A DNA stretch of 59,179 nucleotides from a virus (lineage: Duplodnaviria > Caudoviricetes): IMG/VR virus record IMGVR_UViG_3300021560_000020, positions 1 through 59,179 of that record, one strand, 5' to 3'. Both the position numbers and the translations under genes were made by a program. The notes under the pieces are model-generated. The model searched no databases and had not been told where the DNA came from. It worked only from the letters and a program-made list of their open reading frames with translations. Position 1 is the first letter of the stretch. Each line of letters starts with the position of its first letter. Below, piece after piece: positions 12-38,466 of this stretch.

Positions 12-61
12 GAAAATACCATGTTCGACAAGCTGCGCACGCTGTAATTCGCCTTTGCCGG
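12..61 (+). repeat. Degenerate copy of the 5' end of the holin-like gene (matches about 1797-1846)
   Basis: gaaaataccATGttcgacaagctgcgcacgc-tgt-aattcgcctttgccgg versus gaaaataccATGttcgacaagctgcgcacgc-cac-aattcgcctttgccgg at 1797. This copy has a premature TAA. Confidence 0.9.
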
Positions 62-2359: not shown

Positions 2360-3049
2360 ATGGATGCAGGAAAAAACAGCCGTAGAATCGATCTCGACGG
2401 GCAGCACTTTGGACGTTGGACGGTTATGCGATTTGGCGAAGTCCGCCACCGGCAGGCATATTGGCGATGTTGCTGTGAGTGTGGTGCTGAACGATTAGTT
2501 CGAGGTAAAGAACTGCGCAACGGCCATAGTCGAAGCTGCGGGTGCTTACAGCGTGAAACCGCAATCATACATGGCGATGCACGCGGCGGCAAAATCTCTG
2601 CCGAATATGGAAGTTGGCACGGCATGTTGGATCGCTGCCTTAACCCGAGATCGAAAGATTATCCCCGCTATGGCGGTCGCGGAATTACGGTCTGTGATGC
2701 ATGGCGTTTCGGTGTCCACGACTTATCCGGATTCGAGGTTTTTCTCGCGGACATGGGACGCAAGCCGAGTCCGCAGCATAGTATAGACCGCTATCCCGAT
2801 CGGGGTGGCGGATACAGACCGGACAACTGCCGATGGGCGACCCCAGTTCAGCAGGCGATCAACCGGGCCAATACCACATGGGTGAAAGTTGGCCGCAAAA
2901 GACAACCGATAACGCGGGCCCTCGCGCAGATTCCAAACGGCCGCGAGCGATTTTGGCAATGGGTAAAACGTGCTGATCTATCGCCGCAGCAAGCCTACGA
3001 ACGGGTTATCGAACGTGCGGCTCGCGGAGCAAGGCAGGGGCAACAATAA
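2360..3049 (+). CDS. HNH-type homing-endonuclease-like protein
   Basis: DL.G..FGRW, W.C.C.CG, SCGC, RC.NP....Y..YGGRGI.VC..W and SIDR...G.Y.P.NCRWAT motifs. Confidence 0.85.
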   Translation: MDAGKNSRRIDLDGQHFGRWTVMRFGEVRHRQAYWRCCCECGAERLVRGKELRNGHSRSCGCLQRETAIIHGDARGGKISAEYGSWHGMLDRCLNPRSKDYPRYGGRGITVCDAWRFGVHDLSGFEVFLADMGRKPSPQHSIDRYPDRGGGYRPDNCRWATPVQQAINRANTTWVKVGRKRQPITRALAQIPNGRERFWQWVKRADLSPQQAYERVIERAARGARQGQQ

Positions 3050-4886
3050 TGGCCGACGTATATGATGCCTATGGGCGCCCCGTAGTTTTCGAGGCGCTAA
3101 AAGAACAGCAGGCCCAACCCACTCTCGTAGGCATCCGCAACATCTATTCGATCATCGACGACTCCATCGGCCTGACGCCGGAGAAGGTGGTCAACATCCT
3201 GCGCACCGCCGAGTACGGCGATCCGTGGCTGTATCTCGAACTGGCCGAGCGCATGGAGGAGAAGGATCAGCTCTATCAGGGCATTCTCCACACCCGCAAA
3301 ATGGCGGTCTCGCAACTGGAGATTGACGTGGCCTCGGCCGGGGATGACGAGCAGTCCACCGCCGACGCCGCGTTCGTGCGCGACATCATCATCAACTCCA
3401 ACCGCTGGGATATTCACGAAGTCGTCTACGAGATGCTGGACTCGCTCGGCAAGGGCTTTAGCTGCACCGAGATCATCTGGGATCTGGACGGCACCAATCT
3501 GGAGACCGGGGCGCCGGTCTGGTTGCCCTTCGAACTGAAATGGCGCGATCCGCGCTGGTTCATGTTCGACTGGATTTCCGGCGAGCAGCTGCTGGTCCGC
3601 AGCCTGCGCACCGACGGCCCGCAACTGCCGGTCGGGCGGGAGACCTGGGACTACCGGCTCAATCCGATGAACTTCCGGCTGCGCGCCGATAACGGCGTCC
3701 AGATCGGGATTCAGCCGGCCACTGAACCGCTGGCCCCGTTCAAGTTCATTACCCACATCACCCGCGCCAAGGCCGGTCTGCCGATTCGCGGAGGTCTGGC
3801 CCGCATCGCCATCTGGACCTACCTGTTCAAGAACTACGTACTGAAGGACTGGGTGGTGTTCGCCGAGGTCTACGGACAGCCGCTGCGCCTGGGCAAGTAC
3901 GGCGCGGGCGCGACCGAGAGCGACAAGAACGCGCTGCTCCGGGCGGTGGCCAATATCGGCACCGATGCCGCCGCCATCATCCCCTCCAGCATGGCCATCG
4001 AGTTCGTCGAGTCCAAGGGCGGCGGCCAGCGCTCGCACGAGATGTACGAGAAGTTCTGCGAATATCTGGACAAGCTCCTGACCATCGGCATTCTCGGCCA
4101 GGAACTCACCACGCAGCTGCCGCGCGGGGCCGGATCGCGGGCTGCCGCCGAGGTCCATGACGTGGTGCGCCGCGACATTGCGACCGACGATGCCCGCCGG
4201 GTGGCGGCTTCGCTCAACCGCGATCTGGTCAAGCCGCTCATCGATCTTAACCGCGGGCCGCGCCGCCGCTATCCCGAGATCACCATCGGCTACAAGGAGG
4301 AAACCGACCTGGTGGCACTGGCCGAGTCGATTGGGCCGTTCGTGGATCGCGGTATGCGGGTCGAGGACAAGTGGATTCGGGACAAGTTCAATATTCCTGA
4401 CCCCGCCCCGCAGGCCGTGCTGCTGCATCCCGCCGCCCGCATCAGCGAACAACAGACCGGCGGAAACGGCCCAGGAAGCTCGCTCGCCCCGCCGGATGAT
4501 GGATCACCCGTACCTCCCCCGAAACATCGCCTAGAATCGACCCCCGCGCCAGCCAGCGCTATTGCCGACAGCCCGCTTGGCCCCGCTTTCACGGATATAG
4601 ACGGAAAAAATACCCCGGCCTTGATGGCGGCCCGCAAAAAGACCGAGGACGCGGTGGAATGGTTCGCTGCCGCGCTGCTCGAAGATGAGGCGACCGCCGC
4701 GGCAATGGTCGAGCCGGTGCTCGAGCCGGTAAAAAAAAACTTGAAACGGCGCACTCCTACCACGAACTCAACGCGATGATCCCGCATTGCGCCGCGCTCA
4801 TCGACCTCAAGCCGTTTACCGAACTGGTGGCCCGCAGCAATTTCGTGGCGCACTTGAACGGCCGCCTCAGACGGCCGCTAAGATAG
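3049..4886 (+). CDS. Portal protein (Mu gp29 / DUF935 family); 0-frame stops at 4779, conserved C-terminus in the -1 frame to 4886
   Basis: MEEKD, KGFS..EIIW, W..FAEVYGQPLRLGKY, DAAAIIP..M.IEF, ILGQ.LT, AEVH.VR motifs; A9 run at 4731-4739. Confidence 0.92.
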
Positions 4887-18366: not shown

Positions 18367-18512
18367 GGGTTATTTTCCAGCGATCGGATCCTATATAGGA
18401 ACGCTGGAAAATAACCCCGCGAATAACGAAAAGCGCTTGAGTTCATTAACCAATATTATTTTCCCAATGACCATCAAAAACCCGCGCTTTAAAAACTCGC
18501 CGGAAAATAACC
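18367..18512. repeat. 16-bp perfect inverted repeat with additional GGAAAATAA copies
   Basis: GGGTTATTTTCCAGCG (18367-18382) and CGCTGGAAAATAACCC (18402-18417) around TCCTATATAGGA; further copies near 18456 and 18502. Confidence 0.8.
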
Positions 18513-19894: not shown

Positions 19895-20497
19895 ATGCAG
19901 CGCAATCTGCTGGCGGTAACCTTGTTCTCGTTCATATTCCTCCTGACCTATGCGGTTCTGCCCCGCGACCTCGCGTCGAACTCCGGCAGCGCGGGCGGAG
20001 TCTACCCGCTCGCCCTGGGCATGTCGCCGGAGAACGTGGCCTGCCCGGCAAATATCACGACGCTGATCGACAGCGGCAACATCTCGCCCGCCGCCGACGG
20101 CGATTACTTCATGACCATGCAGGGCATCGTGCCGATCCAGTTGGGCGCGGTGGTGCCGTCGCAGATCCAAATCCTGGTCGAGATTACCGGCTCCGACGGC
20201 AGCACGTTCCGGCCCAGCGTGACCTACGCGCCCGCCTTCCAGTTGCAGCCCGACAACACCTTTGAGCAGGGCATCTTCAATAGTGCCGACAGCGGCAATC
20301 TCAACCCGTCGCTCGGCGGCTACTCCACCCTGGTCAAGTTCAAGGCGGGGGTAACGTACACGGTCATGATGCAGCTGACGCCGACCAACGCGCCGGTCAC
20401 CATCGTCAACGGCGGCTTCCACAACTTCCTGTTCCTGCCGGCGGGCCGCTTCTCGGCCATCCAGCGGGTCAACGGCGGCGTGCGCTATATCCCGTAA
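19895..20497 (+). CDS. Secreted or membrane-anchored hypothetical protein
   Basis: GGAGG RBS; N-terminal hydrophobic signal; beta-rich body. Confidence 0.7.
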   Translation: MQRNLLAVTLFSFIFLLTYAVLPRDLASNSGSAGGVYPLALGMSPENVACPANITTLIDSGNISPAADGDYFMTMQGIVPIQLGAVVPSQIQILVEITGSDGSTFRPSVTYAPAFQLQPDNTFEQGIFNSADSGNLNPSLGGYSTLVKFKAGVTYTVMMQLTPTNAPVTIVNGGFHNFLFLPAGRFSAIQRVNGGVRYIP

Positions 20498-20526
20498 CCT
20501 CCTTATTTGTTCCCGCCTCTGCGGCC

Positions 20527-21705
20527 TCATTTCAGGAGGTTGCCGCCGAGCGCCGCCGAAATCTGGCCGACCTCGTCGGGGCAGGTATCGAAGTCGGGCT
20601 GGTAGATTTCAATCCAGTTCGCCCCCAGGTTCGCCCCGTAGTCGATGCCGGAGGTCTTGAGCGTCGGGCAGTTGTCGGCATTGCTGCGCGCCATCTGCGC
20701 GCCCAGGTTGTCGGCGGTCGAGGACCAGCGCGCGATGGCGTTGGTCCATGACTTGCTCGCCTGCAAGGCCTCGTTGGCCAGACTGTAGCGGCCGCCGCCG
20801 GTCGGATGATGGGTTCCGGCATAGGCCAGGACGGCATTGCGAATGTCGAAATCGTAGCCGCCATCGGTACTGGTAATGTTGGGAAAGGGAAACGAGGCGT
20901 TCCAGGCCGCCACGTTCTGGTCAGGCAGGTGGCCGACCTCGTAGCTCCACAGCGTATTGAAGGCGTTTTCGACGTAGTTCTGCCAGCAGCTCTCGTTGCC
21001 CTTGCAGCCCGAGACCTTGTTCCATTGCTGGTTGTAGTATTCGGGGCTGCACACGCTCACGTTCGAGCTGTTGGTGGTGGATAGCGAGAGGTTGTAGCCG
21101 AGGTCGCTCATCGGCTGGAGTGTGACCATGGCGATTTTCCGGTCGCCGCGGAACTGCTTCTCAAAGGCGTCTACCAAGCCTTTCCAGGCCGACTGATAGA
21201 GGGGGGCAGCGGGACTCGGATCGAGCAGGATAGTACAGGCCGGGTAGGACGATGCCCCGTTGGGGCCAGTGGTGGTATGGACCCTGACTCCCGGCACGCT
21301 GCCGAGCCAGGCGCTACAGCCGGGAATGGCCTTGCCGCGAAACGAGTTGCAGGCCGCCGAGGTGGTGGGCGAGCCATAGGCGCCGACGACAATCACGACC
21401 TGCATGGTCATGCCCGGCGGCAACTGGTTTTCCAGCACGGTAAACGGCGACCAGTCAAAGACCCCTTTTTTGGGTTCGACCTGGGCCCACGAAGCCGACG
21501 CAAACACGCCGCGGGTATGGGGCGGAAACGGCGAGGGAATGGTCCCGTTCATGCCGCCATTGCGCAGCATCAGGAACACGCCCCGGTTGCGATCGGGCAG
21601 CGGTGGCGTCGGCGTCGGAGTCGGAGTTTGGGCCGCGGCCTTGAAGCTCAGCGCGGTCAGCAGGACCAGCAGGGCGAGGAGGATTCGGGCAATTGGGTTT
21701 CGCAT
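20527..21705 (-). CDS. Secreted glycoside-hydrolase-like protein
   Basis: Signal peptide (AAA|Q), TPTPTP linker, SW..VEP..G.FDW motif, paired Cys; similar layout to 15604-16599. Confidence 0.7.
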   Translation of the reverse strand: MRNPIARILLALLVLLTALSFKAAAQTPTPTPTPPLPDRNRGVFLMLRNGGMNGTIPSPFPPHTRGVFASASWAQVEPKKGVFDWSPFTVLENQLPPGMTMQVVIVVGAYGSPTTSAACNSFRGKAIPGCSAWLGSVPGVRVHTTTGPNGASSYPACTILLDPSPAAPLYQSAWKGLVDAFEKQFRGDRKIAMVTLQPMSDLGYNLSLSTTNSSNVSVCSPEYYNQQWNKVSGCKGNESCWQNYVENAFNTLWSYEVGHLPDQNVAAWNASFPFPNITSTDGGYDFDIRNAVLAYAGTHHPTGGGRYSLANEALQASKSWTNAIARWSSTADNLGAQMARSNADNCPTLKTSGIDYGANLGANWIEIYQPDFDTCPDEVGQISAALGGNLLK

Positions 21706-21840
21706 GGGTTAGGCCTCTTAACCGGGTTCACGCGAGTTTGATGGAGAGGGCCCGGTCCAGGCCGGGCCAGAGCGGGGTGTGCACGAGGTCCAGACCGGCC
21801 TACTCTAGCCAGCGGAATGCCCCCGCCGCAAGTTTACTGC

Positions 21841-21869
21841 TTGACTTATCCACAGCCTCGGCCTAATCT
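21841..21869 (+). promoter_or_regulatory. Sigma70-type promoter overlapped by a perfect DnaA box
   Basis: TTGACT-17 bp-TAATCT; TTATCCACA at 21846-21854. Confidence 0.7.
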
Positions 21870-21875
21870 GACCTC

Positions 21876-21945
21876 ACCATCTAAATTATCTCCTTTGTTT
21901 GGTAGAACGCCTGAGGACTCGTCGGCCTCGGGCGTTCTGTTTTTT
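21876..21945 (+). ncRNA. Putative anti-Shine-Dalgarno small RNA (about 70 nt)
   Basis: Bounded by a promoter and terminator, with no ORF; ACCAUCUAAAUUAUCUCCUUUGUUUGGU is complementary to early-gene RBS/start regions. Confidence 0.65.
21904..21945 (+). terminator. Intrinsic terminator
   Basis: AGAACGCCTGAGG/CCTCGGGCGTTCT 13-bp stem followed by G and T6. Confidence 0.85.
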
Positions 21946-21965
21946 AGCCGCCCGCCGCTGCTAAT

Positions 21966-22367
21966 CTAAAGGTGATTCAACTCACCTGGTTCGGGCTTGA
22001 GCGCCAGCTCGTAGACCGTGTGTCCGACACTATCGGTATGCTTGTGCAGGAAGTTCATGCGATGCAGCAGATTAAGCGCCGCATAAACGGTCTTATTGGT
22101 CAGGCCGGTATGCTTGACGAGTTCTCCGGGAGTTACATTGGATCGACCGATCTCGCGGATCGCGCGCAGGACGACTTCACGCGAAACTCCCCGGGCGAGT
22201 TTGCTGGTATGTCTGGTGAGTCGGTCAGCAGCCGGCACGGCGCGCTGCATCGGGACCAGTTCTCCCAGAATCATTTTGCGTAAATCCGCACGCTCCTGTT
22301 GCAGGTTGTGCAACTGGAGATTGACTTCTTCCAGGCGATTGAGCGCCTGTTCACGGGTCATGGGCAT
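21966..22367 (-). CDS. Coiled-coil plus winged-helix DNA-binding protein
   Basis: N-terminal heptads; TPGELVKHTGLTNKTVYAALNLL HTH. Confidence 0.65.
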   Translation of the reverse strand: MPMTREQALNRLEEVNLQLHNLQQERADLRKMILGELVPMQRAVPAADRLTRHTSKLARGVSREVVLRAIREIGRSNVTPGELVKHTGLTNKTVYAALNLLHRMNFLHKHTDSVGHTVYELALKPEPGELNHL

Positions 22368-22368
22368 G

Positions 22369-22638
22369 TTATTCCTTGCCTCCAGTCAGCCGATAGCCGT
22401 TGCGCGCCGCCTGTACCGCGAACCCATAGGCGCAACCCTGACCGCAGAACGAATTGTCACCGTAATCGCCCCACTGCATATCCAGTCGGGGATTATGATG
22501 CACCACCCGGGTCAGCCTGCCCTCCACCATTTCGAGAAAGGGTGCGCCATCGCGCCAGCGGTAGCGGCGCAGTTGACGCCCGCACCAGAGACAGGTGCGG
22601 GCCTCGTTACTTGCGTTAAATGAACGAGCGGCCACCAC
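22369..22638 (-). CDS. Small Zn-binding hypothetical protein
   Basis: CLWCG...FC...CA. Confidence 0.6.
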   Translation of the reverse strand: MVAARSFNASNEARTCLWCGRQLRRYRWRDGAPFLEMVEGRLTRVVHHNPRLDMQWGDYGDNSFCGQGCAYGFAVQAARNGYRLTGGKE

Positions 22639-22641
22639 GGA

Positions 22642-23091
22642 CTAGACCATCTCGTCCATCTGGGAGGCCGCGATCTCGTCCTCTGCCTCGGCGTGCCAGG
22701 AACTGCCGCACGCGCAGTTGAGCGAAATGCCGACCCGGTAGCCGTAGAAGGTCCGCGCGTAGCGCGGGTTGACCGGCCTGCCGGTCCTGGCGTTGACCGT
22801 CTCGGTACGGCTGGTCAACTCGATGTCGCCGTCGCTCTCTACTTCGATCCCGTGGCCTTCGCCCTGATGGGATTCAAGGTCGAACGTATCGCCGGCAGTG
22901 TTCGTGAAAACCTGGGCATCGACCTCCAGGTCGAAGGTGTATTCCTTCAACTCGGTGCCGCATTCGTCGTGAGTCAGCACCACGCGCACTCTGCTGGTTA
23001 CATCACCGTCTTGGTTGACGTTGAGCTCGTCCAGTTCCGGTTCGGTGCTATCGTCGTAGCTCGCGAACTTGTTGCAGTCGGGGCATCGCAT
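22642..23091 (-). CDS. Acidic Zn-binding hypothetical protein
   Basis: GAGGAGATAA RBS before MRCPDCNKF. Confidence 0.7.
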   Translation of the reverse strand: MRCPDCNKFASYDDSTEPELDELNVNQDGDVTSRVRVVLTHDECGTELKEYTFDLEVDAQVFTNTAGDTFDLESHQGEGHGIEVESDGDIELTSRTETVNARTGRPVNPRYARTFYGYRVGISLNCACGSSWHAEAEDEIAASQMDEMV

Positions 23092-23105
23092 GTTGATTAT
23101 CTCCT

Positions 23106-23315
23106 CTATTTTTTCCGGGGCCTGCTCTGCGGGTATAGTCCGACCCGCAGCGTATGCTTGCGGCCGAACCGCTTGCGGTGATTGGCCTGATGGCCGGGGA
23201 AAGAACTGGTTACGTCGCTGGTATAGACGCGAATAAAGGGCTTGCGGCGTTTGGGGCAGTTCTTCTGGTCGCAGACCATGCGCCATTCCGTACCCGGCGG
23301 GGCTTTGACTAGCAT
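23106..23315 (-). CDS. Hypothetical protein
   Basis: AAGGAGATAA RBS. Confidence 0.6.
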   Translation of the reverse strand: MLVKAPPGTEWRMVCDQKNCPKRRKPFIRVYTSDVTSSFPGHQANHRKRFGRKHTLRVGLYPQSRPRKK

Positions 23316-23339
23316 TACGTTGGTTATCTCCTTGTCCGG

Positions 23340-23582
23340 TTAGACCGAATGTTTCCGATCCCAGGCCGCGACCGCCTTGCGGACCCACTGCTTGATTTTC
23401 TCCACGTCGTCGTCGTCATCGAACTCGACGATATAGAACCGGATCGTCTTGGGCAGATTCTCCGGCTGCTCTCTTATCAGCAACTCGGCAGTCTCGCGGC
23501 CATGAGCCACATACTTCTTGCCGGTGCGGGTATCAATTGCCTCGACCCAATCCAGCGGGCCGAGTTCGTCGGGTAAATCCAT
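23340..23582 (-). CDS. Hypothetical protein
   Basis: AAAGGAGATAA RBS. Confidence 0.65.
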   Translation of the reverse strand: MDLPDELGPLDWVEAIDTRTGKKYVAHGRETAELLIREQPENLPKTIRFYIVEFDDDDDVEKIKQWVRKAVAAWDRKHSV

Positions 23583-23602
23583 CCTAATTATCTCCTTTGC
23601 GG

Positions 23603-23737
23603 TTACTTGCGTTGGGGTTTACGTGGCCGACCACCGCGGGCGCCGTTAATCCGGTTGGCGGCGGTCTTGGCCACGCTCTTCTTGAGTCCTCCGCGGCGGC
23701 CCATCTCGACCGCCGCGGGCAACTTCCGTTTCTCCAT
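23603..23737 (-). CDS. Small basic protein (GRRGG...K.AA.R.NG.RGGRP)
   Basis: GGAGAGGAGG RBS; motif typical of small basic phage proteins. Confidence 0.6.
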   Translation of the reverse strand: MEKRKLPAAVEMGRRGGLKKSVAKTAANRINGARGGRPRKPQRK

Positions 23738-23751
23738 GCCTCCTCTCCTGC

Positions 23752-23931
23752 CTAGCGTTTGCGTAGACTGCGCCGGAAGTACCTCCAGGCTTCCGGCCAT
23801 TTCTGCCAGCGGGGTTCGAAGCCGCCCCGCTCCAGCCACTCGCGCAGGTCTTTGGCCGCGCTCCGGGCGCTTTCGTGATCGTGCCGCCGGAGTGCCTCCG
23901 CGATGAGCCTAGCCGTCGCGTCTGGGTCCAT
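23752..23931 (-). CDS. Small hypothetical protein (MDPDAT...WLERGGFEP.W), not in the ORF track
   Basis: GGGAG RBS; 59-aa open frame filling the operon gap. Confidence 0.6.
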   Translation of the reverse strand: MDPDATARLIAEALRRHDHESARSAAKDLREWLERGGFEPRWQKWPEAWRYFRRSLRKR

Positions 23932-24094
23932 CGGCCTGCTCCCTACGCCGGATGATCTGGTTAATCTCCTCCTTGGCCTCCCGCAGGGAGTAGCGCGCGG
24001 TGATGAAGCGGACTCCCTCGTAGATGTTAAAATACAGCACGCCGCGAAACTGCTGGCGGCGCACCCGGAAGCCGCGATAGTCGTGTTCCATCAT
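23909..24094 (-). CDS. Hypothetical protein
   Basis: AAGGAGATAA RBS directly after twister A. Confidence 0.65.
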   Translation of the reverse strand: MMEHDYRGFRVRRQQFRGVLYFNIYEGVRFITARYSLREAKEEINQIIRRREQADGPRRDG

Positions 24095-24105
24095 TATCTC
24101 CTTGT

Positions 24106-24186
24106 GTGCAGCACGCGGGCTTGGAGTTTTCCGCGTGGCGCATTACACCGGGGCATGACCGCCCCGGCCTCCTCTGCAAGCCGCAC
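24106..24186 (-). ncRNA. Twister-like ribozyme, P5-type permutation (copy A)
   Basis: GUGCGGC-UU-GCA-GA-GGAG-[P1 hairpin]-G-U^AA-UGC-GC-C-ACGCGG-AAAA-CUCC-AAGC-CCGCGU-GCUGCAC. Confidence 0.85.
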
Positions 24187-24894
24187 TTAGGGTTGTCGGT
24201 AACCGGCAAGCTGTTCGAGCCGGTCGAGCCATGAGGTATCTGGATCAACCTGGTCGGTTACGTAGTGGCAGCTCCACAGGCCCGACTGCCTGACCTTGGC
24301 CTGATGACTGAAATGGCCGAGCCAGTTGGCACTCGGCGGGTCGATCGCGGTCCGGCCTTGACGATGATAGTTCGACAGCAGCGCCGTACCCTTGCGCTCG
24401 GCTTCGTCGAGGAAGTCCGTATCAGGCACGGCGATCCAGGCGAAATCGAGCTGGGTAAGGGTGTAGGAATACACCGGACCGCGCTCGAAGGCGCGCATCA
24501 ACTGCTCCAGTCCGGCATGCTTGGGATCGCCGGGAATGGCCGAGAAGTTCAGATTGAGATACTTGTTCACGTCCAGTCCGGGCCGCTTGAGCTGGCGCCG
24601 GATAGCCCCTTGCAGATCGTCGCGCAACGCCAGGGCGGTATAGATATACGAGGCAAAAATCGAGCCCTGAGAGACGGCTTGCCGGTGCTGCGTCGGACGG
24701 CTCAGGCCCGCCTTGCGGGACAATCCCATGCGCACGATGCGTCGGCTTAGATCGGCCCGCTGTTCGCCGCGCTCCCAAAAGAAGTACAGGACCTGAGGGC
24801 CGGGTATCATGTTGGGATGCTGTCCGGCATAGTCGGCAATCGCGTGCAGCCGGTCGATCATTGCCGTAAGCTGTGAGAGAGTTACGGGGTTCAT
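24187..24894 (-). CDS. Putative GIY-YIG-like nuclease
   Basis: LYFF.E.GE.R...RIVR.G...QH...GSIF pattern; weak assignment. Confidence 0.45.
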   Translation of the reverse strand: MNPVTLSQLTAMIDRLHAIADYAGQHPNMIPGPQVLYFFWERGEQRADLSRRIVRMGLSRKAGLSRPTQHRQAVSQGSIFASYIYTALALRDDLQGAIRRQLKRPGLDVNKYLNLNFSAIPGDPKHAGLEQLMRAFERGPVYSYTLTQLDFAWIAVPDTDFLDEAERKGTALLSNYHRQGRTAIDPPSANWLGHFSHQAKVRQSGLWSCHYVTDQVDPDTSWLDRLEQLAGYRQP

Positions 24895-24977
24895 AATCGG
24901 AGCCTCCTGAGTTCCGGTTGTGAGAGCGAGGCCGCCCCAGGGTTAACCGCCGCGGACGGCCTCGTGGAGTTAAAGGA

Positions 24978-26057
24978 TTAGGCCGCCTCGGCGATCTTCC
25001 TCCACTCGCCCTGCGGCAATTCCACGATCTGGCCCCCGGCCCGTTGCAGGTCGGTGCCGGTTTCGTAATCCACCTCCTCCGAATTGGCCACTGCCGTGAC
25101 CGCGTTCATCAGCCCGTAGCGGCTCAGGTCGCCGCCCTCGATCAGATTCTTGAGGATCGACTTGCCGATCTCGTCCGAGAACGAGAAGCGCTCCTGCACC
25201 GCTTCGATCACCGCGCCGATGTCGCTCGACTCGATCTTCTGCTCCGCCGCCTCTGCCATCTTGGTCACCTGGGCCACGAACAAGTCCTTGTCCCAGGCCG
25301 CCCGCACCACGTCCCGCACCTTGAGCCACAGCGCCTTGTCATCGGCCTTGCGCGACTCGTCCGACAAGACCGCGCGTACCTCCGTCTCCAGCTCCGCAAT
25401 GCGCCCGACGTGGTAGCGCTTCATCGCGGTCGGCGCGATCGCCCCGTTGAGGCAGACCAGCCGGAAGGTCATCGGCTCGATCCGCAGCGCTCCCGCGCCG
25501 ACCTCCGAGTTGCTGATCACCAGACCGGCCTGCACCACATCCCCCACCTGCCGCGAGCCGGGCACGGTCATTTCAAGCGCGTCCAGCACCGCCTTGATGT
25601 ACAGGCGCTGCTCGGTCAGTTCCGCGCTTACTACTTTGGCGCCGCGCCGCATCAATTCCGGCAGCACCACCTCCGCCAGGTCGTGGTTGTCGAGCGGCCG
25701 GTAGCGGTCACTCAGGAACGCGCGTGCGGTGCCGTCCAGCGTGCGTACCATGCGCCTAGTTTTGGGTTCCCGCTGTAGCCACTCATTGACGTTAGTGGCG
25801 AGCAGCTGCGGGGCTTCCTTGAGCATGCGCTCGTAGTAGCGGCTCGGAATCCCCACATGGTCGCCCAACTGGCCGTGGGCATGGCGGTTGAGGTCGAAGG
25901 TGCCGGTATTGGCCAGATGGAGCTGAACCGGACTCGTCGTGTCCGGCTCGTTCGCGACCAGCGCCAGCCGTCCGACCGGGGCCAGATAGTCCTTGCGGGT
26001 CTCCAGTTGCCGCTCCAACTCGGTCGCCAACTGGATAAGGGTTTTACCCTGTTGCAT
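24978..26057 (-). CDS. DUF932/DUF945-like phage protein
   Basis: H.QL....IP..YY, RAFLSDRY..LDN, ISNSEVG.G, RLVCLNG, H.G, YGL.NAVT. Confidence 0.8.
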   Translation of the reverse strand: MQQGKTLIQLATELERQLETRKDYLAPVGRLALVANEPDTTSPVQLHLANTGTFDLNRHAHGQLGDHVGIPSRYYERMLKEAPQLLATNVNEWLQREPKTRRMVRTLDGTARAFLSDRYRPLDNHDLAEVVLPELMRRGAKVVSAELTEQRLYIKAVLDALEMTVPGSRQVGDVVQAGLVISNSEVGAGALRIEPMTFRLVCLNGAIAPTAMKRYHVGRIAELETEVRAVLSDESRKADDKALWLKVRDVVRAAWDKDLFVAQVTKMAEAAEQKIESSDIGAVIEAVQERFSFSDEIGKSILKNLIEGGDLSRYGLMNAVTAVANSEEVDYETGTDLQRAGGQIVELPQGEWRKIAEAA

Positions 26058-26073
26058 CTACTTATCTCCCTAC

Positions 26074-26149
26074 GCAGCGACCGGGCTTAGGGTTGCCGGT
26101 CCGCGCGTTCTACAGGACCGTTGCCGGTCCTGCCCCTTCCGCGAACTGC
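26074..26149 (-). ncRNA. Twister-like ribozyme, P5-type (copy B)
   Basis: GCAGU-UC-GCG-GA-AGGG-G-[CAGGACCG GCAA CGGUCCUG]-UA-G^AA-CGC-GC-G-GACCGG-CAA-CCCU-AAGC-CCGGUC-GCUGC. Confidence 0.8.
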
Positions 26150-26426
26150 TAGGAGAGCTTGCGGGTATCCACTGCTGCTGCCCTTTCCGTTTCGAGCAAG
26201 TGACGGCCTTCGAAGAGCAAACGAAGCCAGGCTCCGGTATTGGTAAGGCTTACCGAATGGCTAAGGTTGCTGCCGGCCTTGAGTGCCCCCGATCGACCGA
26301 TGAAGTAGAAGCGTCCTCCTGCCGCTTAATCCGGCGATAGTCCTGGTAGGGGCTGTCAATTTCCTTGTGCCCCCGCGCAAGCAGTGCCCGCACCAGCGCG
26401 TCCGCAATCGTGAAAGTCTTTGCCAT
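26149..26426 (-). pseudogene. Hypothetical gene with apparent frameshift near 26320
   Basis: MAKTFTIADALVRALLARGHKEI... continues in another frame as GRFYFIGRSGALKAG...RKLS*, with TAG abutting twister B. Confidence 0.55.
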
Positions 26427-26448
26427 CGTCGTTACCTCCAAGGTTACT

Positions 26449-26484
26449 ATAATACTCAAGCGCTTTGCTTATAGCTATAGTCAA
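26449..26484 (-). promoter_or_regulatory. Promoter-like element containing AAGCGCTT
   Basis: TTGACT...TATTAT with a 24-bp spacer; aligns to the 30713-30741 promoter with 7 extra bp. Confidence 0.45.
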
Positions 26485-26509
26485 TCGCGATCGGTTGCGT
26501 GCCACTACC

Positions 26510-27663: not shown

Positions 27664-27741
27664 ACCGCGCCGGGGCTTGAAGTTTCCCGGCCGCGTGTTC
27701 TATCGGGGGAGCGAACTCCCCCGACCTTCTCCACGAGCTGT
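27664..27741 (-). ncRNA. Twister-like ribozyme, P5-type (copy C)
   Basis: ACAGC-UC-GUG-GA-GAAG-G-[UCGGGGGAG UUCG CUCCCCCGA]-UA-G^AA-CAC-GC-G-GCCGGG-AAA-CUUC-AAGC-CCCGGC-GCGGU. Confidence 0.8.
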
Positions 27742-28766
27742 TAGCGAAGCCGCTTCCGCTCGGCCCCGGTATCGATCTGCTCATCCAAGCCGATGCTATT
27801 GCCGCTCGCCCGTCCGTCCCGATAGGCCGGATGGTTGCGCCGTTCCTCATCCCGTTCCCACTCCCGCTTCCGGCGCGCCTCATCGCGCTCGCGCTCCCGT
27901 TCCTCGCGCGCCTCCTCCTTGGCCTGCTGCTTCGCGGTCTTGGCTTTCGGCGGCGGCGGGATCGCCAGGCCCCGCGCCACGTAGTAGGCGCTGTGCTCAC
28001 TCATGCCGCCCGCGATAAGCTCCTGCTCGCGCTGGCGCAGCGCCTCGCGCCGGGCCTTATCCTGAGCCTCGTAGGCCGCCCACTGTGCGGCCCGTTCGCG
28101 GCGCTGACGGGCGGTGGTACCCGGCTCCCGGCCGTTGAGCGCGTCCTGGTTCAAGTCCTCCTCGCTGCCGTACACGTCGCTCAGCACCATCAACTCCGTG
28201 CCGGTGCCGTTGCCCTGCGCCTGCGCGGCCCGTCGGCTTTCCAGTTCCTGCTCGATGCGCCGCTGGTTGAGCCGCTCAATCAGCCGGTCGGCGCAACCGT
28301 CACACCATTTGGTATGCGAAACCTGCTCGCGCCGGGGATGGTACGGATTCAACCGCTGCATGGCTTGCAGCAGATAGTTATAGGTCTGGATGGTGACCAC
28401 CACGTTGACCTTGCGGCCTAATAGCTGATGGCCGCCGAATTTGCGGTAGTGGCCGGTATTGATGATGAAGTGCAGGCAGAAATTGTTGTCCGCCAGACAC
28501 GCCATCAGGCGGCGTTTCCATTTGTGACCGGCACCGCCGCCGTCCGTCATTTCCCGCGGTTCAGCCGCTGCCGCCGCGGGTTCAGCCTGTTCGAGCGCGG
28601 CTAGCGTTAGGTTATGCGCGGCCAGAATTTCCTGTATCTTGGTCGCCGCCACCAGCGCTTCATTCTCGGAGCACCCGTTCTCGGTAGTCATCCGAAGCAG
28701 GCGCTCGATCTTGCCCAATACCGCCGCCTGTTCGGCGGCTTCGGTCGTCGTCGTCATCTTGATCAT
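27741..28766 (-). CDS. DUF2786-domain protein
   Basis: KI..LL......ENEA..A..K.Q..L..HNL N-terminus; Y..G...G..I.L..Q C-terminus; true start may be 28757. Confidence 0.8.
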   Translation of the reverse strand: MIKMTTTTEAAEQAAVLGKIERLLRMTTENGCSENEALVAATKIQEILAAHNLTLAALEQAEPAAAAAEPREMTDGGGAGHKWKRRLMACLADNNFCLHFIINTGHYRKFGGHQLLGRKVNVVVTIQTYNYLLQAMQRLNPYHPRREQVSHTKWCDGCADRLIERLNQRRIEQELESRRAAQAQGNGTGTELMVLSDVYGSEEDLNQDALNGREPGTTARQRRERAAQWAAYEAQDKARREALRQREQELIAGGMSEHSAYYVARGLAIPPPPKAKTAKQQAKEEAREERERERDEARRKREWERDEERRNHPAYRDGRASGNSIGLDEQIDTGAERKRLR

Positions 28767-28774
28767 CTCCCCGT

Positions 28775-28853
28775 ATAGCGACCGGGCTTAGGGTTTCCGG
28801 TCCGCGCGTTCTGGCGGAGCCAGTGATGGCCCCGCCCCCCTTCCGTAGGCTGC
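28775..28853 (-). ncRNA. Twister-like ribozyme, P5-type (copy D)
   Basis: GCAGC-CU-ACG-GA-AGGG-G-[GGCGGGGCCA UCAC UGGCUCCGCC]-A-G^AA-CGC-GC-G-GACCGG-AAA-CCCU-AAGC-CCGGUC-GCUAU; one P2 mismatch. Confidence 0.72.
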
Positions 28854-29056: not shown

Positions 29057-29132
29057 AACGGTGTCCGGGCTTGGCTGCCGGACAGCGCATTACGTCCGCC
29101 CCGGCAGGGACGGACGGCCTCTGCGAACCGTT
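29057..29132 (-). ncRNA. Twister-like ribozyme, P5-type (copy E)
   Basis: AACGGU-UC-GCA-GA-GGC-[CGUCCGUCCC UGCC GGGGCGGACG]-U^AA-UGC-GC-U-GUCCGG-CA-GCC-AAGC-CCGGAC-ACCGUU. Confidence 0.82.
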
Positions 29133-30151: not shown

Positions 30152-30230
30152 AACGGCGGCCGGGCTTGGAGTTTCCGGCCTGCGTTTTACCATGCACTAT
30201 CCAATAGTGCATGCTCCTCAACTAACCGTT
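30152..30230 (-). ncRNA. Twister-like ribozyme, P5-type (copy F)
   Basis: AACGGU-UA-GUU-GA-GGAG-[CAUGCACUAU UGG AUAGUGCAUG]-G-U^AA-AAC-GC-A-GGCCGG-AAA-CUCC-AAGC-CCGGCC-GCCGUU. Confidence 0.85.
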
Positions 30231-30712: not shown

Positions 30713-30741
30713 AATATAACCAAGCGCTTAGCTTTAGTCCA
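30713..30741 (-). promoter_or_regulatory. Sigma70-type promoter of the leftward early operon, with AAGCGCTT palindrome in the spacer
   Basis: TGGACT-17 bp-TATATT; upstream A-tracts resembling an UP element. Confidence 0.7.
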
Positions 30742-31024: not shown

Positions 31025-32539
31025 TTACCAGCTGCCGGTACGGAACCGCGCCGCGCCGCTGGTGCCGTTAAGCCCATGCCTGCCGTTATCCGGCTCGTGG
31101 TCGCGGCCTCCGCGCTGGAGAAATTCACGCGCCGAGACCTTGCGCGCTACCGGCAGGTATTCGTAGCTGGCGCTGTTGCGATAGCTCGCATAGTAGGCCA
31201 GCGCACACGCCACCGCGGCATCACCGTGGCGCTGGCCGCCGCCGATCTCACGCGTGCGCCGGTCGGGCACCTTGGCCACTCCCCGCTCCATGCGGATCAT
31301 GCGCAGGTCGGCCAGAATATCGGCGTTGCGCGGTAGTTCGAGCTGGTGCTCCTCCAGCGCCCGCTTGAACTTCGGCATCTCGTTGCGGTACCACTCTAGG
31401 TTCAGGATCAATAGCTCGATACGTTCCGGCTCCTCGCGCGTGCCGCCGTACTTGCGCCCGGTCTCTTCGGCCAGCCAGGAACCGTTGCCGCCGGCATCCA
31501 TCACCCCGCTGATTAGCCACGGACAGTGATCGAGTGCGTGGAATAAGACTTTGCGCTGGACTTCGTGCGGCACGTCGCGCAGTTCCACCACCAGCCGGGT
31601 ATGCCTGACCGTATCTTCCCCGAGCTGGAGAAACCAAAAGACCGAGAGGTCACCGGAGCGGCCGAAGTCCACCCCGAAACAGGTCTGCCGATAAGGCTCA
31701 AACTGCTCTAGCGCAGCCGTAATCAGCGGCTCCAGTTCCTCGTCAGCGTGCTCGCCCCGCGCCCGCAGCACCGCAATGCCCGTGGTCATGCAGGATTCGA
31801 TCAGTTCGGTCGGCAGGAACACGCCGCCGCCCTTCGAAGGCACGCAGAACAGTTCCTCGTCGGCGTCGTCACCGTACTGATGAATCAGGTCCGCCCGCCA
31901 GTCCCGCTCGCCCCGTGGCGTCCAGCTGATCCCCGCCTCATGGCAAATCGCGCCATAGAGACCCTGGGCCAGCGCATCATCCAGCGTGGTCCGGTGCAGG
32001 CCATAGCTGCGCCGCGCCGCGCGAATATCATTGACCAGATCGGCAAACGGATTATCCGCGCCATAATGCGACGAGATGATATGGACCGCGCCGCCCCACA
32101 TGGTAACCGCAATCGCCGCCTTGAGCAGAGCAGCCAGGTCTTCGTGGAACGCCGCCTCGTCGATAATGATCAGGCCCTGCTTGCCGCGCAGGTTGGAGGG
32201 CCGGCTGGACAGCGCCGTGATCTTGCGGCCGGAGGCGAAGCGAATCCGGTAGGCCAAGATGTCCTTGTTCAGGTCGCGCAGGACGGTCTGCTCGACCGCC
32301 GAAGCCGAAGCCTGGAACAGCCGCGCCCAGTTCGCGCAATACTCGATAAACTCCAGCGACATCTCCCGGTTATAGCCGGTATACCAGACGTCACCGCGAC
32401 CGGGGGCCGCCGTCTTTACTGAATCCGCCGCTTCCGCCCAGGTTATCCCGATCCGCCGGCTCTTCTCGTATACCTTGATCGGCGTCCGGTCCCGCACCCA
32501 CTTTTCTTGATATGATAGTAGCGGCATCGACCTGCTCAC
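31025..32539 (-). CDS. terL: Terminase large subunit (Mu gp28-like)
   Basis: LL.YQ..W, EKSRRIGITW, SSRPSNLRG, IIDEAAFH, GVDFGRSGD, HGDAAVA.ALA. Confidence 0.95.
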   Translation of the reverse strand: MSRSMPLLSYQEKWVRDRTPIKVYEKSRRIGITWAEAADSVKTAAPGRGDVWYTGYNREMSLEFIEYCANWARLFQASASAVEQTVLRDLNKDILAYRIRFASGRKITALSSRPSNLRGKQGLIIIDEAAFHEDLAALLKAAIAVTMWGGAVHIISSHYGADNPFADLVNDIRAARRSYGLHRTTLDDALAQGLYGAICHEAGISWTPRGERDWRADLIHQYGDDADEELFCVPSKGGGVFLPTELIESCMTTGIAVLRARGEHADEELEPLITAALEQFEPYRQTCFGVDFGRSGDLSVFWFLQLGEDTVRHTRLVVELRDVPHEVQRKVLFHALDHCPWLISGVMDAGGNGSWLAEETGRKYGGTREEPERIELLILNLEWYRNEMPKFKRALEEHQLELPRNADILADLRMIRMERGVAKVPDRRTREIGGGQRHGDAAVACALAYYASYRNSASYEYLPVARKVSAREFLQRGGRDHEPDNGRHGLNGTSGAARFRTGSW

Positions 32540-34916: not shown

Positions 34917-35169
34917 GTTCCTACCTCCCGGTTTCTCTCTGCTCTATATGCTCATAGTTCTAGCAGAAGGTTGTTTAAACGTGCTAATTGGTTTAAAAAA
35001 ATACTGCATCTAAGCGCGATAATCAGAAACGCCCGGCCCCTGCTGTCTGCCCTTTCCCTGTACCAGAAATAGCAACTTCGAACTGCCAGCTAATCCGGTA
35101 TTCGGTTACTAGCCTAATGTGCGTCTGTATTGCGTCTGCCCCGTCCGTTCGTTAACGAATTTTCCCAAT

Positions 35170-36876
35170 ATGCTCGCGAATGTGGTTAAACCCGGCCAGG
35201 AAGCCGCCTGGGACAAGGCCAAGCAGATTGCGCTCAAACAGCGCAAGGCCTCCGATCCGCTCTACTGGGGCCTGGTCATGCACCTGTTCAAGTCCATGGT
35301 GGAGAAGGACGGCAGCGCGAGCGCCGAGGAACTGGCCTGGGCCTATCCCGAAGCTGAGCATGAAACGCAGACCGCCAGTACCGGCCCTGGCCGTGCCACC
35401 TGTACCGTATTGCTGGCCTACCACCGCGATCCCGACCAACCGATGCCCGCCTGGATCGAGGTCATGCCCGGCGGCCGCTTCCAGGCCGCCGACGGCCGCG
35501 GACCCTTCGTGGTGGCCGACGCGGAGGAAATCGTTCGGGCCTCCAATGAGGACATGCCCGAAGCCGGGATCGTCATCGACTACGATCACTCCACCGATCT
35601 TGCCGCCACCGAAGGTCGTCCCGCTCCCGCTGCCGGCTGGATCAAGCGGTTTAAGGTGATCGGCGGCAGAATCATGGCCGCGGTCGAGTGGACCAAAAAA
35701 GCTCTGGAAGCACTCAAGGCCAAGGAATACCGCTACATCTCGCCGGTCTTTGAACACGACAAGGGCAACCGGGTCGAACGTATCCTGCGCGCGGCGCTGA
35801 CCAACAATCCCGCATTGACGGAACTCCCCGCGATCGCATCGAGGCAACAGGCTATGGCTAAGCATCAGGAGATGAGTCTGTCAGAACGCGCCCGCCGCAT
35901 GGAGCAGGCCGTGTCCCGGCGCGATAATGAGGAAACCGCGGCCTATCACAAGCGGCTGATGAAACATCTGGCGCTGGATGACGAGGAAGAGGGTGCCGCC
36001 GCCGGACCGCCGGGAGACACCGATGCCGCTCCCGAAGACGACGAAGGCAGTACTGCCGATCTGGAGGACGAAGCTGCCGGTGCACTCAAAGATTGGGCCG
36101 AAGAGGAGGAGGGCGAGCCGGAGCATAGCGACAGCGTGGGCGATGATGAGGAACTGACCGCCCGCCATCGCGCGGAGGATGAAGCCCTGGCCCGCCGCCA
36201 CGACGAGGAACTCGCCGCCTGCCGTGAGGAGGATATGCGCAGCCAGCTTACCGCCCGGCACAAGTCCGAATCCGAAGAACTGGCGCGCAAACATGACGAG
36301 GAACTGGCCGCGTTCCGTACCGCCGCGGCGCGCAAGGCAGGAGGCGGTCTGGAACACAAGGCCCAACCCGGCGGCGGCGAGGGCAAGAACGTCAGCGATA
36401 CGGGAACCCCGATGAAATCACGCATGAGCATTCAACTGGTCAAGCACAACCGCCAGCTAATGAACACCGTCGGTAAGCTCATCAAGCGGGTCGATACCTT
36501 GGAACATCGCCACGTCAAGGATGTGGCCGTCAGCAAGGTCGATGCCGCGATCCGCTCCGGCCGTCTGATTCCCGGTCATCGCGAGTGGGGCATCCAGTAC
36601 TGCTCGTCCGACCCCAAGGGCTTTGACAGTTTTCTGGCCGGACAACCCCAGATCATCGCCAGCGGCCCCGACGGGACCTTTACCGGCCGCGTCGGCGCAC
36701 CTTCCGCCCAGGCGCAGCCGTTCAGCAGCAGCGCGCTGGAAATTCTGGCCAATATGGGACTGGAGACCGACGAGCAGATCGAACGCTGTGCCAAGGTGCA
36801 ACAGAACTGGAATCTGAAGTTTCCGCGCCCGCAACTGCGCCTGGACGATAGCGCGCTGGATCGGCAGGACAAGTAA
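35170..36876 (+). CDS. Mu I-like prohead protease/scaffold
   Basis: DGRGP, VIDYDH, APAAGWI, VEWT, EYRYISPVF, AALTNNP; acidic scaffold region. Confidence 0.92.
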   Translation: MLANVVKPGQEAAWDKAKQIALKQRKASDPLYWGLVMHLFKSMVEKDGSASAEELAWAYPEAEHETQTASTGPGRATCTVLLAYHRDPDQPMPAWIEVMPGGRFQAADGRGPFVVADAEEIVRASNEDMPEAGIVIDYDHSTDLAATEGRPAPAAGWIKRFKVIGGRIMAAVEWTKKALEALKAKEYRYISPVFEHDKGNRVERILRAALTNNPALTELPAIASRQQAMAKHQEMSLSERARRMEQAVSRRDNEETAAYHKRLMKHLALDDEEEGAAAGPPGDTDAAPEDDEGSTADLEDEAAGALKDWAEEEEGEPEHSDSVGDDEELTARHRAEDEALARRHDEELAACREEDMRSQLTARHKSESEELARKHDEELAAFRTAAARKAGGGLEHKAQPGGGEGKNVSDTGTPMKSRMSIQLVKHNRQLMNTVGKLIKRVDTLEHRHVKDVAVSKVDAAIRSGRLIPGHREWGIQYCSSDPKGFDSFLAGQPQIIASGPDGTFTGRVGAPSAQAQPFSSSALEILANMGLETDEQIERCAKVQQNWNLKFPRPQLRLDDSALDRQDK

Positions 36877-36893: not shown

Positions 36894-37406
36894 ATGGCAG
36901 CACTTACCGGCTCTCGCAACACCTCGGAATGGGCAGTAGGCAATCGCTACCATTATGGCCTTGCAGGCGTAGAGGCGGCGACCTCGCTCTATGTCGGCGG
37001 CATGGTGGCGCTCGATGCCAACGGCTATGCCGTGCCCGCCCAACCGACCGGCGCCGGACCACTGGCTACCCTGCTGGTGGTCGGTATCGTGGAGTACGTC
37101 TATGCCGGAGGCATCATGCCGCCCGGCGTCAACGCCCTGAATCAGGCTGGCTTGGGCTCGGTCTTTCCCGGCGTACCGGCGGCTTCGCTCGGCAATGCCG
37201 GAGCCATCTCGGTCGGCATCGCCTGTTCGGTATTCGGCATGGACTTCGATGGCACCATTACCGGCGCGGTCAAAATGGGCCAGTTGGCCTATGCGCTGGA
37301 CGATCACACGGTCACTCTGACCGCGACCGGCCATGTTATTGCCGGACGGATTACCGCGGTTGAGGGCGGCCAGTGCTACATCAACTTCGACTCGCGCGCA
37401 CCGTGA
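36894..37406 (+). CDS. Head decoration/cement-like protein
   Basis: MAALT..RNT, Y.G.MV.L...GYAVP, YA.DD.TV, AG.I; between protease and capsid. Confidence 0.7.
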   Translation: MAALTGSRNTSEWAVGNRYHYGLAGVEAATSLYVGGMVALDANGYAVPAQPTGAGPLATLLVVGIVEYVYAGGIMPPGVNALNQAGLGSVFPGVPAASLGNAGAISVGIACSVFGMDFDGTITGAVKMGQLAYALDDHTVTLTATGHVIAGRITAVEGGQCYINFDSRAP

Positions 37407-37473
37407 TCCAATCAGTACTCAAGCGGCCCCACGGCACCGACCATTCATTTCTCAAGCGGAGCATGCAAACGCC

Positions 37474-38466
37474 ATGATGATAAGCGCGAACAACCTAACC
37501 GTGATGTTCACCGGCTTCGACACGATCTTTCAGCGTGGCTTTGAGATGGCTCCAAGCTACTACGAGAAGCTCGTCTCGGTCGTGCCGTCCTCCACCAGCC
37601 AGACCATGTATCCCTGGCTCGGCCGCACTACCGGCTTTCGGGAATGGACCGGCGACCGCGTGCTGCAGGCGCTCGAAGCTCATGCCTACACCATCGTCAA
37701 CAAGACCTTCGAAGATACCGTCGGCATCGAGCGCGAGCGGGTGGAGGACGATCAGTACGGCGTCTACACCCCGGTCATCGAGCAACTCGGCTGGGACGCC
37801 CGTACCTTTCCCGATCAGCTCATCTTCGGCATGATGCGGGCCGCCACTTCCGGCTCTCCGGTCACCATCGGCAAGGTCACGATTCCGGTGCCGATCTGTT
37901 ACGACGGGCTCAATCTCTATGCGGCCAATCATCCGGCTGGCCCGATGAACGAGACCTCGGCCTCCTTCCAGACCACCTTCTCCAACGTCAACACCTCCGG
38001 TACCGGCGCCTACTGGTATCTGGTCGATGCCGCCCGTCCGATCAAGAGTTTCATCTTCCAGAAGCGCCGTGAGTTTGCCGTCACCCGCATGAATACCGTG
38101 ACCGACGAGGCGGTATTCTCGCAGCGCCTGTTCCGCTATGGCGTGGACGTGCGCTGTAATGCCGGTGTCGGCCTGTGGCAGCTAACCTACGCCAGCAATA
38201 CCGACCTCTCCAATCCGGCCAACTATGCCGCCGCGGTAGCCGCCCTGCGCAACATCAAGAGCGATGCCGGAGTGCCGTTCGGGGCCTGGAACGGACCACC
38301 TACCAGCCGTTTCCTGGTCGTGCCGCCGTCACTTGAAGAAGTCGCCCGTCAGCTGCTACACGCGACTTTTGGTGCTGGCGCTATCGCAGGCGCGGTTAGT
38401 GCTATTCCTATTGCTAACGTTTACTTAAATGACGCGACCTTGATTGTTTCCGAATGGCTGGTCTAG
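37474..38466 (+). CDS. Major capsid protein (Mu gpT-like)
   Basis: Y.WLG....REW.GDR, NK.FE.TV, EDDQYG.Y, CYDG..F...HP, YGVD.R.N.G.G.WQ, LVVPP.LE. Confidence 0.93.
   Translation: MMISANNLTVMFTGFDTIFQRGFEMAPSYYEKLVSVVPSSTSQTMYPWLGRTTGFREWTGDRVLQALEAHAYTIVNKTFEDTVGIERERVEDDQYGVYTPVIEQLGWDARTFPDQLIFGMMRAATSGSPVTIGKVTIPVPICYDGLNLYAANHPAGPMNETSASFQTTFSNVNTSGTGAYWYLVDAARPIKSFIFQKRREFAVTRMNTVTDEAVFSQRLFRYGVDVRCNAGVGLWQLTYASNTDLSNPANYAAAVAALRNIKSDAGVPFGAWNGPPTSRFLVVPPSLEEVARQLLHATFGAGAIAGAVSAIPIANVYLNDATLIVSEWLV

Follow-up and report, generated by a model that had tools for sequence, protein, structure and literature searches.

The locus and the phage that carries it

At 21841-21945, on the plus strand of a phage record, a promoter-like sequence is followed by a sequence complementary to a ribosome-binding site (RBS) and then by a terminator hairpin, all within 105 nt. 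The record is 59,179 bp in length (referred to below as the window, meaning the whole stretch of DNA analysed), is rated as 98% complete and represents a myovirus-like phage. The features considered here are the following.

21841-21846, plus strand: -35 box TTGACT, matching TTGACA at five of six positions
21864-21869, plus strand: -10 box TAATCT, after a 17-nt spacer
21876-21903, plus strand: predicted 5' part of the RNA, ACCAUCUAAAUUAUCUCCUUUGUUUGGU, with a probable start near A21876
21886-21893 and 21878-21880, plus strand: anti-RBS seed UUAUCUCC and CAU, within the predicted 5' part
21863-21897, minus strand: orphan RBS AAAGGAGATAA (21887-21897) and a five-codon ORF (21880-21863, MVRSD*)
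21904-21945, plus strand: intrinsic terminator, a 13-bp G+C-rich stem (21904-21938) followed by G and T6
21966-22367, minus strand: upstream neighbour, a 133-aa protein, with 21 nt separating its stop codon from the RNA unit
20527-21705, minus strand: downstream neighbour, a 392-aa protein with an N-terminal hydrophobic segment and a TPTPTP linker
23575-23603, minus strand: start region of an 80-aa gene (23340-23582), the best predicted trans target
24110-24182, 26078-26150, 27668-27742, 28778-28850, 29058-29132 and 30152-30225, minus strand: six twister-P5-like modules
3049-4779, plus strand: portal
31025-32539, minus strand: large terminase (TerL)
35119-36876: head protease
37333-38466: major head protein
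42847-44967: tail sheath

The candidate RNA unit sits in a 260-bp gap between two genes of a minus-strand block that runs from ~34.7 kb down to 20.5 kb and includes both neighbours. The 133-aa protein has a weak winged-helix similarity, with FUR-, MarR_2- and HTH_11-like Pfam matches below cut-off, and found no homologue but itself among 5.8 billion proteins. The 392-aa protein has many conserved Cys and Trp residues and five unnamed homologues at 35-65% identity, and it belongs to no Pfam or PHROG family. No host-type promoter for its gene was found in 21706-21965, suggesting that the gene depends on minus-strand read-through across the RNA unit. Beyond the 392-aa gene the final genes of the converging plus and minus blocks are separated by just 29 nt (20498-20526), with no terminator-like hairpin between them.

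The six twister-like modules lie directly upstream of the starts at 30129, 29034, 28757, 27648, 26057 and 24094, 20-35 nt from the Shine-Dalgarno (SD) sequence. Their presence gives some ground to the remark in the initial annotation about mRNAs released by ribozymes. They are mutually alignable and the sequences of stems P1, P2 and P4 vary between copies, with pairing, judged by eye, being kept (in P2: GCA/UGC, GUU/AAC, GCG/CGC, GUG/CAC). The whole twister-P5 layout with all three stems appeared in four of the six free folds; for the copies at 30129 and 28757 the free fold gave the P1 and P4 hairpins without the outer stem. Rfam reports a single copy, below its threshold (26.4 bits vs 37.6, E 0.036).

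Identical phage DNA was found in four soil metagenome runs, all of them DNA runs, and in no RNA run; region 21841-21945 showed no variation across the four, and the X3 contig 21718-21931 is identical to the phage sequence. Two of the runs, X1 and X2, are possible sources of the record. Relatives of the portal protein were located at 66 loci, the best at 77%, 72% and 64% identity, and the best of them occur in metagenome-assembled genomes (MAGs) labelled Candidatus Binataceae or "uncultured delta proteobacterium", several inside contigs of 0.2-2 Mb. Because the best portal relatives sit in Binataceae-type MAGs, we adopted Candidatus Binataceae as the presumed host, a working assumption drawn from the relatives of two proteins, portal and terminase. 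The phage record contains no detectable tRNAs. Tyrosine integrase, serine recombinase/resolvase and rve transposase domains were likewise not found in this 98%-complete record, and integrase-type domains were also absent from the individually scanned phage proteins, so the suggestion in the initial annotation that the locus might serve lysogenic immunity is left with no basis.

Some features of genome layout deserve mention in their own right. Terminase (minus strand) and portal (plus strand) lie 28 kb apart, whereas the two are adjacent and on the same strand in L012, the one relative in which both were located, and the terminase lies at most 10 kb from the portal in 57 of 72 loci; the separation could be due to rearrangement, a mosaic genome or an assembly join. 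Direct repeats occur near the record ends, at 1-67 and 1786-1852 (87% identity over 67 nt) and at 95-242 and 58872-59019 (70% over 148 nt). The latter repeat, which spans both record ends, could stem from paralogous segments of tail fibres or from how the record was cut.

Promoter and terminator

The initial annotation described the promoter as a consensus one. All the letters quoted there for 21841-21945 are in place, TTGACT and TAATCT with a 17-nt spacer among them, but these two boxes match just 8 of the 12 E. coli consensus positions, and a standard E. coli-type scan called neither the promoter nor the terminator of 21841-21945. Across the whole genome such scans returned 9, 4 and 1 promoter matches (7.2, 5.5 and 4.5 expected) and 17, 13 and 8 terminator matches (15.7, 15.9 and 12.1 expected). 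These scans sit at chance level, and textbook promoter and terminator signals are not in general use in this phage.

A further comparison came from the presumed host clade. Upstream regions of 16S genes were read in seven MAGs with portal relatives, and all seven Binataceae-type rRNA operons carry TTGACA ~205-220 nt upstream of 16S, followed by a spacer of 17 nt (18 in one) and the -10 boxes TACTCT, TAGAGT, TATTGT (two), TATCGT (two) and TAATGT. The sequence TTGACT-17-TAATCT fits this host-clade pattern, TTGACA-17/18-TAnnnT, which was derived from the seven operons with the candidate promoter already known. The corresponding motif TTGACW-N17-TANNNT matches once in the whole window, at 21841-21869, against 0.26 expected, and 24 of 100 shuffles contained at least one match. 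What is rare is the conjunction: by our own arithmetic the chance that a lone site of this kind falls on the right strand within ~60-100 nt of the terminator is ~2 in 10,000. In a control scan for TTGACN-16..18-TANNNT, covering the window and ~1.1 Mb of fetched related loci, one of 22 promoter-like sites, the one at 21841-21869, has a stem of at least 8 bp and a T run within 25-220 nt.

Other promoter-like sequences were seen at 30713-30741 and 26440-26490 (minus strand) and 18420-18450 (plus strand), which have A-AAGCGCTTG-(A/G)(G/T)T in common, with an A/T-rich box behind it; the site at 30741, for instance, reads TGGACT-17-TATATT. In the three intergenic sites of this type the palindrome AAGCGCTT directly precedes the -10-like box, and they may be operator-bearing promoters of the minus-strand block. 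The 8-mer itself shows no overall enrichment.

The terminator was called strong in the initial annotation, and the sequence bears this out. The hairpin at 21904-21938 folds at -23.7 kcal/mol (z -5.0), a value equalled by none of 200 shuffles, and its 13 contiguous pairs run into the T run; 13 pairs before a T run were reached in 4 of 100 shuffled genomes and 14 in none. By a looser, energy-only measure the hairpin is unexceptional, as 19 of 40 shuffled genomes had a T-run-ending fold at or below -20 kcal/mol. A genome-wide terminator scan ranked 21904-21945 best of seven matches and placed it, alone of those listed, in an intergenic gap; TTTTT or AAAAA occurs 39 times in the genome in all. On the minus strand the same hairpin is weaker (-19.6 vs -23.7 kcal/mol), because two U·G pairs, one in the main stem and one next to the loop, turn into C·A, and the T6 run is present on the plus side alone. 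Judged from these letters, the terminator is a plus-strand element.

The anti-RBS segment and the orphan RBS

Transcription from this promoter, which we infer to start near A21876, would produce an RNA whose first 28 nt are the exact complement of a strong minus-strand RBS, AAAGGAGATAATTTAGATG, plus an ATG. The segment had been described as an ACCA/UGGU stem exposing a loop. At 21876-21903 the best fold has only -2.7 kcal/mol (z -1.55), and 14 of 200 shuffles folded as well, so that the stem is at chance level; the anti-RBS stretch is better described as a predicted free, essentially unstructured 5' end.

On the minus strand, as the initial annotation had noted, the SD-like sequence opens only MVRSD*: AAAGGAGATAATTTAGATG is followed by ATG GTG AGG TCA GAT TAG. 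A second TAG lies further on in the frame behind the orphan ATG, and GC contents at codon positions 1, 2 and 3 are 0.62, 0.52 and 0.72 over 58 codons. This weakly coding-like profile, with its two TAG stops, makes a decayed small gene possible. An intact RBS in front of a five-codon ORF, on the other hand, is what would be expected if selection acts on the plus strand.

Several other candidates were considered and rejected. Read-through of the mini-ORF at TAG was set aside, as TAG is an ordinary stop in this phage, closing 22 of 60 ORFs, and the frame soon meets the second one. A type I toxin-antitoxin pair was also set aside: MVRSD* and the TAG beyond it leave no small hydrophobic toxin. Inspection by eye spoke against coding in two plus-strand ORFs, 21693-21866 and 21817-21969, each with an internal ATG without an SD and atypical GC at the second codon position. 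Rfam 15 gave no match in the window at gathering score, and so no described RNA family; within 21700-21980 it gave three chance-level matches (E 1.6-6.7, at most 14.7 bits vs cut-offs of 38-50). An exact search of viral contigs with the 20-mer of the orphan RBS region found one match and nothing further, the ordinary RBS of a long ORF in L006, an unrelated AT-rich phage contig.

These observations can also be accommodated with no regulatory RNA at all, an explanation that we regard as somewhat unlikely. What the minus strand carries would then be a functional mini-ORF or the remains of the start of a small gene since lost, the promoter motif would be a product of chance, and the plus-strand hairpin with its T run would merely end stray antisense transcription, which, in the absence of a terminator where the blocks converge (20497/20527), could reach 21945 by read-through. 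The orphan RBS does belong to the same family as neighbouring starts, its frame with the GC profile and two TAG stops resembles a decayed ORF, an unrelated phage uses the identical 20-mer as an ordinary RBS, and the chance-level E. coli-type scans point in the same direction. However, a relic RBS should have decayed alongside its ORF and this one is intact, the genome's one TTGACW-N17-TANNNT would have to stand beside its best terminator by chance (the ~2 in 10,000 given above), and none of the 21 other promoter-like sites, in the related loci, is followed by a terminator. We prefer the plus-strand RNA, because the RBS is intact and the ORF is not, and because the segment is flanked at the right distances by a plus-strand promoter and terminator.

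Predicted pairing with phage start regions

The initial annotation had listed thirteen start regions with an unusually uniform RBS, and all thirteen indeed have GGAGAT, mostly as GGAGATA, 3-8 nt before ATG; one of them, 29910, is an ATG that lies within the 30129 ORF and in its frame. The sequence AAGGAGAT occurs nine times in the genome against 1.30 expected, a seven-fold excess that none of 100 shuffles reached, and when followed by A/T-rich sequence it is also the classic strong RBS of T7 gene 10. Also as described, the structural genes do without this extended SD: GGAGAT was found at none of the 25 plus-strand ORF starts from 35119 to 56061, the head and tail genes.

When the 5' 28 nt of the RNA were folded against 64 phage start regions and contiguous pairs were counted, the start of the 80-aa gene at 23582 was the best of the 64, with 14 contiguous Watson-Crick pairs and -32.1 kcal/mol; a manual alignment, as opposed to tool output, adds six further pairs over AUGG. 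The same 14-mer is the best internal match of the intergenic region (E 0.046). Next came 24094 with 11 contiguous pairs, 27648, 23315, 23091 and 9436 with 10 each, and 30129 with 9, so that at least nine pairs are predicted in 7 of the 64 start regions and at least eight in 11.

Of the 13 listed GGAGAT sites 12 are among the 15 best duplex energies, but this ranking of targets has a built-in circularity, the seed being a mirror image of one RBS-family member. The same applies to the complementarity between seed and start regions, which is real but automatic by construction, since one member of the family read in reverse complement gives the element. Three tests escape this circularity. When aligned on GGAGAT, the orphan RBS ranks 7-8 of 14 in mean identity to family members, and the seed is thus neither tuned to nor centred on the family consensus. 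GGAGAT is not a private SD "barcode" of the phage, as had been proposed, since no other GGAG hexamer is as frequent before the starts of host-clade loci (27 of 162); the base that follows it there is C in 25 of 48 and A in 7. Finally, the host-clade 16S 3' tail is canonical, CACCUCCUUU. None of the three favours a "master" regulator.

A side observation concerns the related prophages L012-L049 (e.g., L014 at 12993, L015 at 13520 and L044 at 13370), in which a gene of ~390-400 aa downstream of the portal, probably encoding the major head protein, keeps tctttcGGAGATcaaATG. Its retention suggests that GGAGAT is a preferred SD form in this phage and host group despite the canonical 16S tail.

An RNA might also be made and act at its own locus only. 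It would then be antisense to the minus-strand read-through transcript, its likeness to other RBSs would be functionless, and the 392-aa gene would be uncoupled or shut down through convergent transcription, a duplex of 70 bp and cleavage of the double strand, as happens to cII under lambda OOP. Complementarity is perfect across the whole 70 nt at this locus alone, the 392-aa gene has no host-type promoter in 21706-21965 and would need read-through, the seed is off-centre in the RBS family (rank 7-8 of 14), and OOP is described as acting in this way (PMC12197685). Against this stand the cis copy of the RBS, which serves no gene, so that blocking it would achieve nothing by itself, and the 14+6 bp match to the 23582 start, which far exceeds usual seed length and would be hard to avoid. 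On balance we consider purely local action unlikely.

A third origin, by decay of a copy of the twister-ribozyme-plus-RBS module that stands before six other minus-strand genes, was rejected for hairpin and RBS as highly improbable: AGAACGC opens the hairpin and also stands at the post-P1 junction of the 26105 and 28806 copies (AGAACAC at 27648), and the distance to ATG is similar (58 nt vs 54 nt), but AGAACGC occurs at chance frequency (11 times vs 9.68 expected), no other ribozyme part is present at 21.9 kb, and the T run and G·U pairs point to the opposite strand.

Searches for relatives of the region

Searches for relatives returned structural genes and little else. The 66 portal-bearing genome loci have only structural genes in common with the phage, and in a tblastn search of 28 window proteins against 72 loci TerL was found in 57, one protein gave a 30-aa match and the other 26 gave nothing. 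The 133-aa and DUF932 proteins were not found in the five closest genomes. When 165 genomes of the G003 family, a set that includes the unpublished genomes G160 and G164, were searched with a 695-nt stretch of DNA, 26 gave matches of ~20-45 nt, none of them over the seed or the hairpin; one 23-nt match touches the T run alone.

Viral and metagenomic sequences gave a similar picture. A distant DNA search of a phage collection with 20000-26000 as the query found two irrelevant short matches. Among viral contigs, the 392-aa and DUF932 queries found no loci and the 133-aa query found five, of which the two inspected (L001 and L005) are spurious, because the match is to the antisense strand of a capsid-like ORF. 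In metagenome contigs there was no alignment to the 392-aa protein, and the seed-plus-T-run pattern gave one chance match, in otherwise dissimilar AT-rich coding DNA.

A proposed small antisense RNA

For a promoter, an anti-RBS segment and a terminator within 105 nt, the best explanation is an antisense RNA of ~70 nt, similar in type to P22 sar or lambda OOP. Accordingly graded, our interpretation has parts of differing strength: it is probable that an RNA is made from 21841-21945; we only tentatively read the region as a self-contained plus-strand gene for a ~70-nt antisense RNA that acts at ribosome-binding sites; and it is quite unlikely that this RNA silences a dozen phage genes. Of the small-RNA gene proposed in the initial annotation, the separate ~70-nt plus-strand unit is supported by the logic of its sequence, and the structured loop and the barcode are not.

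The proposed gene would lie head-on inside the minus-strand operon. Host RNA polymerase would start at the host-type TTGACT-17-TAATCT, near A21876, and would stop at the genome's only high-quality intrinsic terminator. The first 28 nt, predicted to be single-stranded, could then pair with sites that combine an RBS and a start codon and keep 30S subunits off them. In cis the target would be a perfect match, the minus-strand read-through transcript between the 133-aa and 392-aa genes; in trans it would be the near-perfect match at the start region of the 80-aa gene 23340-23582, and six GGAGAUA-type start regions, with 9-11 contiguous pairs each, might be further targets. The minus-strand "RBS" that opens MVRSD* would be merely the mirror image of the seed. 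Such an RNA might serve as a timer or shut-off of gene expression, or might control read-through into the 392-aa gene.

A broader version can be imagined in which the RNA is a phage-made "better anti-SD". The seed UUAUCUCCUUU resembles the 16S 3' tail, and two changes turn the latter into a perfect partner of GGAGAUA(A) starts, so that the RNA could win against ribosomes at the starts of 7-11 strongly translated phage genes and, as an RNA equivalent of T4 RegA, act as an infection timer. Several of the target genes would lie on mRNAs freed by twister ribozymes, and the RNA would be titrated away by pairing perfectly with the read-through transcript of its own operon. We regard this version as improbable.

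Comparison with known regulatory RNAs

The closest known counterpart is sar of phage P22, described as a 68/69-nt antisense RNA of the immI region that blocks the ant RBS and thereby translation initiation; like sar, the candidate would be small, with its own promoter facing the operon, and would cover an intercistronic RBS (PMC12197685). Unlike sar, which overlaps the RBS of a real gene, ant, the candidate overlaps an intact RBS and ATG that open five codons, together with the leader that would carry read-through to the 392-aa gene. Further differences are the 1.7-kb distance to its best real target, the lack of sequence similarity, a presumed host from a different phylum, and a phage record in which no lysogeny module was found. 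The promoter of sar lies inside the start of its target gene.

Lambda OOP, a 77-nt RNA antisense to an operon transcript, resembles the candidate in being short, with its own promoter and a strong terminator, and in running against the operon (PMC12197685). Unlike the candidate, which would act at an RBS, OOP targets the 3' end of cII and brings about decay through RNase III. The c4 RNA of P1 and P7 is a phage RNA in which exposed complementary stretches pair around an RBS and block translation, much as proposed here (PMC12197685). The candidate differs from c4 in that promoter and terminator are its own and lie on the opposite strand. The c4 RNA is cut from a same-strand operon transcript and acts on one operon.

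Staphylococcal RsaE is a multi-target sRNA with a C/U-rich anti-SD seed. A further multi-target sRNA with a seed of this kind is described for M. tuberculosis, 6C (PMC6486639). As with 6C and RsaE, the anti-SD-like seed of the candidate could reach many start regions, but those RNAs are chromosomal and conserved and present their seeds in C-rich loops, whereas the candidate seed would be single-stranded at the 5' end and extend over the spacer and AUG as well. T4 RegA is reported as a protein repressor of many early mRNAs (PMC3014915) and would be the functional analogue of the proposed regulon, a phage factor that shuts its own early genes at their start regions, although it is a protein and not an RNA. 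The candidate would be a new and unrelated addition to the established phage antisense RNAs (sar, OOP and c4), special in that the RBS it overlaps serves no gene.

Overall, the observation that prompted this work is partly confirmed and its first interpretation partly supported, as far as sequence can tell. If the terminator and relic alone are real, the finding is an ordinary one. At the level of titles and abstracts, we found no phage RNA that silences a dozen of its phage's own genes through a common RBS, and such an RNA would be new, if true. Titles and abstracts likewise gave no study of phages of Binatota, an uncultured phylum-level group; provided that it is made, the candidate would be the first proposed regulatory RNA from any such phage. 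A sar-like antisense RNA without a partner gene on its own locus's other strand would, if true, raise the question of whether such RNAs can shift from cis to trans control. Taken with the operon's six twister-like ribozymes, the RNA would point to unusually RNA-based gene control in a single phage.
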